From the NCBI GenBank assembly GCA_041649675.1, contig JBAZMQ010000008.1, positions 344 through 64,343 on the forward strand: a stretch of DNA of 64,000 nucleotides. The letters run 5' to 3'. The stretch comes from Patescibacteria group bacterium. Lineage in GTDB: Bacteria; Patescibacteriota; Patescibacteriia; Buchananbacterales; UBA6539. Positions 57,732 through 60,700 of the stretch are shown piece after piece (the first letter of the stretch is position 1; every line of letters starts with the position of its first letter). Under the pieces are notes generated by a model. The model was not told where the DNA came from. It searched no databases and worked only from the letters and a program-made list of their open reading frames with translations. Position numbers and translations under genes: made by a program.

Positions 57732-60700
57732 GGTTAAATAGAAATTAAGGGCAAATGGTGGATGCCTCGACATCAAAAGACGATGAAGGACGTAGCAGCC
57801 TGCGAAAAGCCTCGGGGAGGTGGCAAGCAACCTTTGAACCGGGGATTTCCGAATGGGGAAACCCACTTTGGTGGAAGACCGAAGTATCATTAACTGAATA
57901 CATAGGTTAATGAAGACGACCTGGTGAAGTGAAACATCTCAGTAGCCAGAGGAAAAGAAAAAAATATGCGAATTGCAAATTGTTTATCCCGATTTATCGG
58001 GATTAGCAGTTTGCGGTTTGCTCATTCCCTAAGTAGTGGCGAGCGAAAAGGGATGAGCCCAAATTCTGTAGACTATTACCTAGATTAAGTTTTTTGCTTA
58101 AAGATTAATTTCTTTAGCAGGAAACTTAATCAAAGGTCTTTAAGGGTGCAAGCCCGTAATGCCTACAAAACGTTGTAAGATTGATGTGTTCTAAACCCTT
58201 GCAGGTTTAGGTAGAGAAAAAAATATATTTTCCTAGCAAAAGTCGCTGGAAAGCGATGCCAAAGAAGGTGATAGCCCAGTATGCGAAAGGAATTATAACT
58301 CTGCAGCATTTTTCTTGAGTACCACGGGTCTCGTGAAACCCTGTGGGAATTTGCCGCGACTATGCGGTAAGGCTAAATACTTTTGATGATCGATAGTGAA
58401 CAAGTACCGCGAGGGAAAGGTGAAAAGCAGCCCGGTGAGGGCGATGAAATAGTATCTGAAACCATTTGCTTACAAGGAGTCGGAGCTCCGCTTCGCGGAG
58501 TGACGGCGTGCCTATTGAAGAATGAGCCAACGAGTTTGTGGATGTTGCTACGCTTAAGTCCGAAAAGGACGAAAGCAAAGTGAAAGCAAGGGTTAACCCC
58601 CGTAGTTTACTTATTGCTTACCCTGCCATTTTGGTAGGTTGAGCAATTTGTAAACAGGTATCATTCACAAGACCCGAAACCAGGTGACCTAACCATGACC
58701 AGGGTGAACGTACTGTAACAGGTACGGGAGGCCCGAACCCACGAGCCGTGCAAAACTCGGGGATGAGTTGTGGTTAGCGGTGAAATTCCAATCGAACTTG
58801 GTAATAGCTGGTTCTCCTCGAAATAGCTTTAGAGCTAGCCTTAAGTAGTAACTGTGGGGGTAGAGCACTGAATAGGGACAGATGGAGCAATCCTACTGTT
58901 CTTAACCAAACTCCGAATACCACAGCGGAATACTTAGGAGTCAGACTATGCGGGCTAAGCTGCATTAGTCAAAAGGGAAACAGCCCAGATCACAAGCTAA
59001 GGTCCCTAAATCGACGTTAAGTGTTAAAGGTGGTGATTTGACTCAAACAACCAGGAGGTTGGCTTAGAAGCAGCCATCCTTTAAAGAAAGCGTAACAGCT
59101 CACTGGTCAAGTTGGGTTGCGCCGAAAATTTATCGGGGCTAAACGTCGTACCGAAGCTGTGGCCTCGCTTGCATCTCATTTCATTCGATGCAAGCTCGAA
59201 CTTTTAACCATTAACAATTAACAGTTAACCATTTGGTTAGTTGTTAAAAGTTAAATGTTAATTGTTAGAGCGAACATCGAGCGAAGCGAGATGCGAGCGA
59301 TGGGTAGAGGAGCTTTCCTTAAGTGATGAAGGTTGTTCGTGAGAGCAGCTGGAGTTTAAGGAAGTGAGAATGTTGGCATGAGTAGCAAAAAGGCAGGTGA
59401 AAATCCTGCCCACCGTAAGCCTAAGGTTTCCTGGGCAACGAGAATCGACCCAGGGTTAGTCGGTCCTAAGGCGAGGCCGAAAGGCGTAGTCGATGGAAGA
59501 GCAGGTTAATATTCCTGCACTATCTTATAAAAAACTTGGAAAGGACGCATCTTGGATGCTCTAACGTTCTATGGTATGGACGTTCGTTCGCATCTCACTT
59601 CGTTCGATGCGAAACAATTAACCATTAACAATTAACAGTTAGCCATTTGGCCAATTGTTAAAAGTTAACTGTTAACTGTTCGCGAGTATCGAGCGCAGCG
59701 AGGTGCGAGCGAGAAGGCAAAGCCTCGGCAGAGTCAACTAGAGTTGAATAGGTGCCTAGAAAAGCTTCCATGCATGTTTATAAGATAACCGTACTGCAAA
59801 CCGACACAGGTAGGCGGGCATAAGTGTGCTAAGGTGTACGAGAGAATCCTCGTTTAGGAACTCGGCAAAATAGCGTCCGTAAGTTAGCAATAAGGACTCC
59901 CCAACGCAAGTTGGGGCGCAGCTAAAGATCTCAAGCGACTGTTTATCAAAAACTTAGGTCCCTGCAAAAGCGCAAGCTGAAGTATAGGGGCTGATGCCTG
60001 GCCAGTGTCAGAACGTTAAGGGGTGAGGTCAATCCGCAAGGAGGCAGCCTTAAACCGAAGCGCTGATGAACGCCGGCGGTAACTATAACCGTCCTAAGGT
60101 AGCGAAATTCCTTGTCGTGTAAGTTACGACCTGCACGAATGGCATAACGACTTGAGAACTCTCTCAACGAGGAACTCGGTGAAATTGCAAGTCCAGTAAA
60201 GATGCTGGGTACCCACAGCTGGACGAAAAGACCCCGTGAAGCTTTACTACAACTTGATATTGGATTATTATTTCGCCTGTTCAGCATAGGTGGGAGCCTT
60301 CGGGCACCAGTGAGATACCACCCTTGCGTAATGATAATCCTAATCTAGCCCCCTGAATCGGGGGAGGAAACAGTATCTGGTGGGTAGTTTGACTGGGGCG
60401 GTCGCCTCCTAAAAGGTAACGGAGGCGTTTACAAAGGTTGGCTAGGTTCGGATGGAAATCGAACCGATAGCGTAAAGGCACAAGCCAGCTTTACTGCAAG
60501 ACTTACAAGTCGCGCAGTTACGAAAGTAGAACTTAGTGATCCGACCGTACGAAATAGGACGGCGGAAGCTCAACGGATAAAAGCTACTCCGGGGATAACA
60601 GGCTAGTCTGGTCCAAGAGTTCACATCGACGACCAGGTTCGGCACCTCGATGTCGGCCCATCGCATCCTGGGGCTGTAGAAGGTCCCAAGGGTTTGGCTG

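Follow-up and report, generated by a model that had tools for sequence, protein, structure and literature searches.

Paralogous palindromic insertions at two helix tips of a patescibacterial 23S rRNA gene: candidate intervening sequences from a wider family of heptad hairpins

When a single 23S ribosomal RNA (rRNA) gene carries two copies of the same long palindrome, are these hairpins removed from the precursor as intervening sequences (IVSs) or do they persist as expansion segments in the mature molecule, and how did one gene come to possess two of them? This question is raised by a 64-kb stretch of contig JBAZMQ010000008.1 from a bacterium of the Patescibacteria or Candidate Phyla Radiation (CPR), referred to below as the window. 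The 23S rRNA gene of the window contains two paralogous hairpin elements, located at the tips of helix 45 and of another surface helix; their distribution among close relatives is patchy, and hairpins of the same type recur in other CPR rRNA genes and in tRNA spacers. The reading that we favour, with a probability of roughly 0.55, is that these are IVS-type hairpin cassettes which were copied between helix tips and would be excised from the pre-23S rRNA by RNase III.

Two copies of one hairpin in a single gene

The complete bacterial large subunit rRNA of the window spans positions 57732-61034 of the forward strand (Rfam RF02541, 2484.5 bits, model positions 1-2925), and the gene is 3303 nt long against the 2925 positions of the Rfam model. 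The host is an uncultured, ultra-small bacterium near Candidatus Buchananbacteria: the CapA-like protein that flanks the 23S gene (55288-57012) has its best matches among proteins named Candidatus Buchananbacteria or Patescibacteria, in agreement with the CPR host suspected in a preliminary description of this DNA. The features at issue, with reference to two related genes (L002 and L004, see below), are the following.

57732-61034, forward strand: 23S rRNA gene bearing both insertions (Rfam RF02541)
59163-59301, forward strand: insertion 1, hairpin element at the helix 45 tip (hairpin proper 59165-59300), replacing the 20-24-nt hairpin of E. coli, L002 and L004
59165-59190, forward strand: insertion 1, 5′ arm of the G+C-richer basal stem, a candidate region of double-strand cleavage; pairs with 59275-59300 in the fold
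59199-59267, forward strand: insertion 1, heptad core (four TTAACNN units, ATTT loop, complementary heptads)
59275-59300, forward strand: insertion 1, 3′ arm of the basal stem in the fold
59584-59713, forward strand: insertion 2, paralogous hairpin element of 130 nt forming the helix 58 tip
59584-59609, forward strand: insertion 2, 5′ arm of the basal stem; pairs with 59687-59712
59613-59680, forward strand: insertion 2, heptad core
59687-59712, forward strand: insertion 2, 3′ arm of the basal stem

The conserved blocks ACCGAAGCTGTGG (59150-59162) and GGGTAGAGGAGC (from 59302) are separated by 139 nt in the window and by exactly 20 nt in E. coli (positions 1166-1185), which bears out the approximately 140 and 20 nt of the preliminary description; the same holds for the long hairpin reported there around the core TTAACCATTAACAATTAACAGTTAACCATTTGGTTAGTTGTTAAAAGTTAA, which is located at 59204-59254. 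In the covariance-model alignment, insertion 1 falls within the apical loop of the hairpin at model positions 1206-1226, that is helix 45, the classical IVS site to which it had been assigned. Insertion 2, previously delimited at about 59575-59715 and roughly E. coli 1450-1550, is placed by the same alignment at model positions ~1512-1568, corresponding to E. coli ~1469-1530, within the H56-H57-H58-H59 junction. The helix 56 stem closes three hairpins here, and the insertion is at the tip of the second one, which we take to be helix 58 of the E. coli map.

Comparison of filled with empty sites indicates that at both helices the native short hairpin is replaced by the element, not interrupted by it. 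The empty site at helix 45 reads GTTTCATGAATTTATTCATGGAGC in L002 and CTCCAACGTAAGTTGGAG in L004, and the one at helix 58 reads CCCCGGCGCAAGTTGGGG in L004; no flanking direct repeat or target-site duplication was detected at either insertion in this comparison. Neither element contains an open reading frame (ORF), as had been stated before; any overlapping ORFs extend across the borders and do not exceed 51 amino acids.

Both elements fold into highly stable hairpins, with energies of -69.5 kcal/mol (copy 1, z -11.7; 54 base pairs) and -63.7 kcal/mol (copy 2, z -8.3; 53 base pairs), and for neither was any of 200 shuffled sequences as stable. Each hairpin consists of a near-continuous, G+C-richer basal duplex of ~24 bp, which includes a perfect run of 13-14 bp, and an A+U-rich distal stem in which four TTAACNN heptads per arm form 5-bp helices between 2x2 internal loops, capped by an AUUU loop. 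The two copies align at 86% mean column identity, non-repetitive basal stems included, so that the homology of the second insertion to the first, claimed in the preliminary description, stands. A 24-mer common to both copies occurs at only these two places in 64 kb (0 expected by chance), and each copy is the best match of the other, above the 65-74% baseline of low-complexity similarity among heptad hairpins. The basal stems are alike (TCGCTTGCATCTCATTTCATTCGATGC compared with TCGTTCGCATCTCACTTCGTTCGATGC), with three mismatches between the 26-nt 3′ arms. Fifty base pairs can be compared between the copies: 41 are identical, 6 differ by a one-sided wobble change and 1 by a compensatory change, so that 48 are preserved, and two are broken; each copy has five G-U pairs. 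The argument for paralogy relies on the basal stems, since a resemblance in the heptads alone would be poor evidence of homology. No match to the basal stem of the window type was found in any of the 221 other fetched loci, and there is no third copy of the element within the 64-kb window.

Patchy distribution and a wider family of heptad hairpins

Six Buchananbacteria-like relatives (L002, L004, L216, L217, L219 and L221) were found by the synteny of CapA, DUF5654 and 23S, and a seventh, L185, was taken from a metagenome scan. Their 23S genes are 85-92% identical to that of the window, and the states of the three relevant helix tips are as follows.

L002 (23S ~91% identical): helix 25 not extended; helix 45 plain; at helix 58 the contig stops where insertion 2 would start
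L004 (922-kb contig JBAZSB010000001.1): helix 25 with a ~113-nt hairpin with the same heptad core; helix 45 plain; helix 58 plain
L216: helix 25 with a long non-heptad hairpin; helix 45 plain; helix 58 plain
L217: helix 25 with a long non-heptad hairpin; helix 45 plain; helix 58 plain; further hairpins at ~2173 and ~2306
L219: helix 25 not extended; helix 45 plain; helix 58 with a hairpin of GCAAATN heptads
L221: helix 25 with a long non-heptad hairpin; helix 45 plain; helix 58 with a different hairpin; a hairpin at ~2175 paralogous to its own helix 25 element
L185: helix 25 not extended; helix 45 with a heptad hairpin; helix 58 with ~29 extra nt, not a heptad hairpin

The helix 45 element of the window is thus missing from all seven sampled relatives, six of which have an unextended helix 45, with L185 alone carrying any insertion there. 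Helix 58 bears a hairpin extension only in the window, L219 and L221, and its sequence differs in each. The helix 25 hairpin of L004 contains TTAACCATTAACAATTAAC...TTGTTAAAAGTTAAATGTTAATTGTT; at this position the window has only a plain cUUCGg hairpin, TCCGCTTCGCGGA. The basal stem of the helix 45 hairpin of L185 closely resembles that of the helix 25 element of L004, the two being mutual best matches, which implies that the helix tip occupied by a given type of cassette varies from genome to genome. The window, L130 and L221 each have paralogous hairpins at more than one tip of the same gene, those of L130 and L221 being of other types, and some related CPR 23S genes have hairpins at six to nine sites. 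The contig of L002 ends (position 10845, window 59581) at ...GGTATGGAC, 2 nt short of the start of insertion 2; such a break is compatible with a repeat, or with a polymorphism for presence of the insertion, disrupting assembly at helix 58, although this is unproven.

A second, non-heptad hairpin family (CACCTATTxTACGTATA...AAATAATCTGCTT) is represented in L221 (13672-13797 and 15018-15132) and L217 (13690-13815 and 15175-15285), in each case as paralogous copies at the helix 25 and ~E. coli 2100-2200 tips of one 23S. The heptad family is thus not alone in being copied from tip to tip of one gene. Insertions that are much larger, of 445-1077 nt, are present in the related CPR 23S genes of L130, L150, L165, L173 and L183 at E. 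coli ~1918, 2263 and 2605, the first and third of these positions agreeing with published group I intron / LAGLIDADG sites.

A search for further copies of the core, suggested in the preliminary description, gave none elsewhere in the window but led to a large family present in the rRNA genes and tRNA spacers of CPR bacteria, along with related arrays in other phyla. The family was sampled in metagenomes with a pattern that required both hairpin arms, exactly, so that the scan covers a part of the family and the shares of contexts derive from a sample biased in this way. The scan returned 89 stretches, and 54 non-redundant heptad hairpins were left once 23 matches to another repeat had been set aside. 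With context classes assigned by means of heptad-masked 16S references and flanks required on two sides, 37 of the 54 are associated with stable-RNA genes, being located within a 23S or 16S gene or immediately next to a tRNA gene. About ten are inside 23S genes, at tips corresponding to E. coli ~145-177, 279-291, 540-552, 1172-1186, ~1365 and ~1721; four are inside 16S genes, one of these within a group I intron; and 23 directly adjoin tRNA genes, 11 of them occupying the whole of a tRNA-tRNA spacer and one that of a tRNA-23S spacer. The remaining 17 are located elsewhere, outside stable-RNA genes. Several 23S genes contain two to four heptad hairpins apiece, the family recurs in many samples, and one of the tRNA-spacer loci (L164) is Buchananbacteria-like. 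The heptad hairpin was absent from the viral contigs scanned (0 matches). The cassette belongs to a broad family whose members, in this lineage, are practically confined to places that can accommodate a hairpin in the transcript, namely rRNA tips, a group I intron, and spacers between tRNA genes or between tRNA and rRNA genes.

Two members of the sample deserve separate description. In L179, a heptad hairpin at 11716-11772 lies within an Intron_gpI match (11656-12067) in a 16S gene and thus is an element nested in another insertion. In L127 (1-210), the hairpin is at the start of the contig, between a tRNA-Val gene and the exact inverted copy of that gene, an arrangement that may be an artefact of assembly, with the sequence folded back on itself at the palindrome. 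The 23 matches set aside (L128, L131, L135, L136, L138, L145 and others) belong to an unrelated ~90-nt repeat resembling a miniature inverted-repeat transposable element (MITE), with GGGGTCAGGTC / GACCTGACCCC termini; this repeat, from a high-G+C organism in sediment metagenomes, met the search pattern by coincidence, through TTAACTTTTAAC...TTGTTAAAAGTTAA beside its termini.

The 19-nt heptad core by itself was rejected as a marker of the family. It occurs in at least 120 stretches among the matches listed, from Bacteroidota, Cyanobacteria, Gammaproteobacteria, Acidobacteriota and other phyla, and nearly all of these listed matches are heptamer microsatellites outside rRNA, namely (TTAACCA/TTAACAA)n tandem arrays in intergenic DNA, some of them inverted around a spacer. 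The arrays among the matches listed (L007-L126) include those of the cultured isolates Parapedobacter soli, Sphingobacterium micropteri, Flavobacterium defluvii, Fulvivirga imtechensis and Microseira wollei. Because the same heptamer recurs across phyla, similarity limited to the heptads says little about common descent.

Excision, retention and the origin of the copies

Under the favoured reading, a single palindromic cassette, consisting of the ~24-bp basal duplex and the TTAACNN distal stem, would have replaced the terminal hairpins of helices 45 and 58. Either one copy would be derived from the other or the two would share a source, through a copy-and-paste or gene-conversion-like event between tips, followed by divergence of ~14% under which the fold was kept. 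Both copies would be transcribed as part of the pre-23S rRNA and removed by a nuclease specific for double-stranded RNA, presumably RNase III, that cuts the basal duplex, with no re-ligation; the mature 23S rRNA would then consist of pieces of ~1433, 281 and 1322 nt held together in the ribosome. The evidence leans towards IVSs because the elements are patchy among close relatives, because the basal duplex is long, and because the same type of hairpin is found in tRNA spacers; the spacer hairpins must go during tRNA maturation and hence support the notion of a removable hairpin. Across the family, 22 hairpin insertions in rRNA were compared by strand, and in 17 of them the rRNA-sense fold is the more stable one (mean -5.7 kcal/mol relative to antisense, Wilcoxon p = 0.007), a bias that points to the folded RNA, and not a palindrome in the DNA, as the object of selection. 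The 23S gene of the window is itself enclosed by a perfect duplex, the classical processing stem of pre-23S rRNA, which suggests maturation of the RNase III type.

57719-57742, forward strand: 5′ half of the perfect 24-bp stem enclosing the 23S, 100% complementary to 61022-61045
61022-61045, forward strand: 3′ half of the 23S processing stem, pairing with 57719-57742

Several considerations weigh against excision. We infer the removal of both insertions from the pre-23S purely from the sequence. Helix 58 is not among the common IVS sites, which are helices 9, 25 and 45. The 2x2 internal loops that recur every 7 nt make the heptad part a poor substrate for RNase III, so that only the basal duplex is a plausible target. 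The advantage of the sense-strand fold is small for the two copies of the window (-4.0 and -1.4 kcal/mol), and no Ribonuclease_3 match was obtained among the 20 window ORFs scanned. With regard to copying, no transposase and no donor copy outside rRNA was found in the 64-kb window, nor a target-site duplication at the sites compared. Finally, excision of every hairpin from the related genes that have many of them would leave the rRNA in many pieces, so that some of these hairpins probably are retained.

The last point is easier to square with the principal alternative, in which the hairpins stay as surface extensions of helices 45 and 58 of a one-piece rRNA. Expansion segments of eukaryotic (ES15L, ES7L), mycobacterial and Asgard rRNAs would be the precedent, with ES15L presumably situated at helix 45 and ES7L at helix 25. 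This explanation, which we regard as a real though lesser possibility, is consistent with the nature of the sites, variable surface tips where expansion segments occur, with the conservation of the fold between the two copies, and with the presence in the same gene of insertions at E. coli ~231, 279-291 and 614-669 that are conserved among relatives like fixed expansions. The helix 45 and helix 58 elements themselves, however, are conserved neither in position nor in presence within the lineage, being patchy even among close relatives whose 23S genes are ~90% identical; no protein partner is evident; and staying is impossible for the hairpins of the same type in tRNA spacers. Furthermore, CPR ribosomes are otherwise described as reduced (PMC9297842). 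A different possibility, which concerns the origin of the elements and is compatible with their excision at the RNA level, is that they are selfish, MITE-like palindromes of DNA without an RNA role, for which rRNA tips and tRNA spacers are the few surviving non-coding sites in a compact genome. The palindromic architecture, the occurrence of one stem-plus-core type at different helices (helix 25 of L004 and helix 45 of L185), the paralogous copies within one gene (the window, L130 and L221) and the approximately 17 of 54 family members outside stable-RNA genes would all fit. Nevertheless, we consider this unlikely given that the native hairpin is replaced and not interrupted, with no target-site duplication, that neither a transposase nor a further copy was found in 64 kb, and that in the family at large it is the rRNA-sense strand that benefits from G-U pairing.

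Two further explanations would dispense with copying altogether. Independent growth in place at both tips by heptamer slippage, the similarity being low-complexity convergence, could be entertained since numerous unrelated phyla have arrays of this motif and the baseline similarity among heptad hairpins is already 65-74%; it is highly improbable, because the copies also share their non-heptad basal stems, which were found in none of the 221 other loci. An assembly artefact or chimera, or else a small self-splicing intron, is scarcely credible. Metagenome contigs often break in rRNA genes, and those of L002, L003, L005 and L006 indeed end inside the 23S, but an independent contig (L222, ENA ERZ27247363 k141_121305) is 100% identical to window positions 57745-64000, both insertions included, so that these are not an artefact of one assembly, and the family is recurrent across samples. 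As for an intron, no intron family reached the gathering score anywhere in the window in the Rfam scan, and a simple hairpin of 135 nt has no catalytic core.

Relation to known elements and other features of the locus

Classical 23S IVSs are commonly found in helices 9, 25 and 45, where they replace the native hairpin with no target-site duplication (PMC4990558). The elements of the window resemble those of Salmonella, Yersinia, Campylobacter, Leptospira and Coxiella in that they are extended stem-loops replacing the small terminal loop of a surface helix, and share with them the helix 45 site, a length of ~100-200 nt, long complementary termini and a sporadic distribution among close relatives (PMC4990558, PMC8708148, PMC2801512). 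Insertion 1, at the tip of helix 45 with the small terminal loop replaced, is sited like a classical IVS, and the lack of ORFs is reminiscent of the short Salmonella and Campylobacter types. Unlike classical IVSs, the window has a paralogous second copy at helix 58 and a TTAACNN distal stem, its excision is deduced from sequence features, and hairpins of this type are present in 16S genes, in tRNA spacers and within a group I intron as well.

Short ORF-less insertions at IVS sites of CPR 23S genes are a known, published class. Tsurumaki et al. (2024) surveyed CPR rRNA insertions of at least 100 bp, classified them by intron models and ORFs, and considered the short ones to be probably IVSs of the RNase III type (PMC11270868); such insertions were also reported by Brown et al. 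(2015), at least as cited in that survey. The 'insertion sequences' 23IS2 and 23IS4 of the survey are, like the elements described here, short (<200 bp), ORF-less, non-intron and located at helices 25 and 45 (PMC11270868), and both window elements add at least 100 bp relative to E. coli in a CPR host, with no intron model and no ORF. The text of Tsurumaki et al. says nothing of hairpins or heptads, of related copies at different sites or of any connection with tRNA spacers, the words 'repeat' and 'hairpin' occurring 0 times (PMC11270868). In the literature searched, the heptad architecture and the paralogous copies at different tips of one gene appear to be undescribed, as does the occurrence of the hairpin in 16S genes, an intron and tRNA spacers; the helix 58 site likewise appears undescribed, the positions of 23IS1-14 being given by Tsurumaki et al. 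in figures only. Searches of the literature text for the heptamers returned unrelated oligonucleotides only.

Other systems offer partial parallels. rRNA expansion segments likewise extend the same variable helix tips with the core left undisturbed, but they are retained and conserved within lineages, whereas the window elements are patchy among genes that are ~90% identical. The Rickettsia palindromic elements and the Correia elements of Neisseria, the latter with hairpins that RNase III cleaves, are palindromes that land in transcribed RNA. The window elements similarly are short, non-autonomous palindromes in several copies that are tolerated inside functional RNAs or transcripts; they differ in the distinct heptad architecture and in showing neither a target-site duplication nor defined termini, and the likeness is one of description only. 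The short tandemly repeated repetitive (STRR) sequences of cyanobacteria, reportedly described by Mazel et al. in 1990, are also heptanucleotide tandem repeats, with consensus sequences said to be CCCCAGT, TTGGTCA and CAACAGT. They share the 7-nt period, the intergenic arrays and the occasional inversion, and TTAACCA/TTAACAA arrays are present in cyanobacterial contigs (L015, L044, L056, L075, L077 and L086, among the matches listed); these STRR heptamers differ from TTAACNN, and we know of no mechanistic link between the two kinds of array.

If both insertions are excised, the 23S rRNA of this organism would be in three pieces, and one hairpin family would explain many of the 'uncharacterised short insertions' that have been counted, but not analysed, in CPR rRNA genes. 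The paralogous copies at different tips would point to spread by tip-to-tip copying, which bears on the origin of IVSs. That hairpins of this family are concentrated in tRNA spacers suggests that they act as a common processing signal in genomes whose set of RNases is reduced. Such insertions also have practical consequences, in that they cause breaks in rRNA assemblies and bias the detection of CPR bacteria by means of rRNA. A broader and rather doubtful extension of these ideas is that the heptad hairpins might be a self-propagating 'cut-here' cassette of CPR, copied among stable-RNA units such as rRNA tips, tRNA spacers and intron loops and serving as, or exploiting, an entry site for a double-strand nuclease, such that rRNA fragmentation and the separation of tRNA precursors would both depend on one mobile family; the TTAACNN arrays across phyla might then reflect a shared generating mechanism.

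The rest of the locus has several features of its own. The 23S gene is followed by a 5S rRNA gene (61217-61324), and the Rfam scan found no 16S gene anywhere in the 64-kb window; the 23S-5S pair is not linked to 16S. A 26-nt stem with 81% complementarity (61200-61225 / 61315-61340) encloses the 5S rRNA, and a separate hairpin at 61138-61180 lies in the 23S-5S spacer; both look like ordinary processing structures. Relative to E. coli, the 23S of the window has additional insertions at 57969-58022, 58069-58228 and ~58599-58669 (after E. coli ~231, at 279-291 and at 614-669, respectively), none of which is a heptad hairpin; because they are common to L002, L004 and L185, they look like fixed lineage-specific expansions. 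Deletions are located at E. coli ~1728-1747, 2137-2161 and 2795-2810. Finally, a feature at 51726-52088 on the reverse strand, ~5.6 kb upstream of the 23S gene and adjoining an LTD/PKD-domain protein, represents a family normally known from inside IVSs; it is syntenic in L004, L006 and L219, and a small GIY-YIG ORF is present at the same position in L217.

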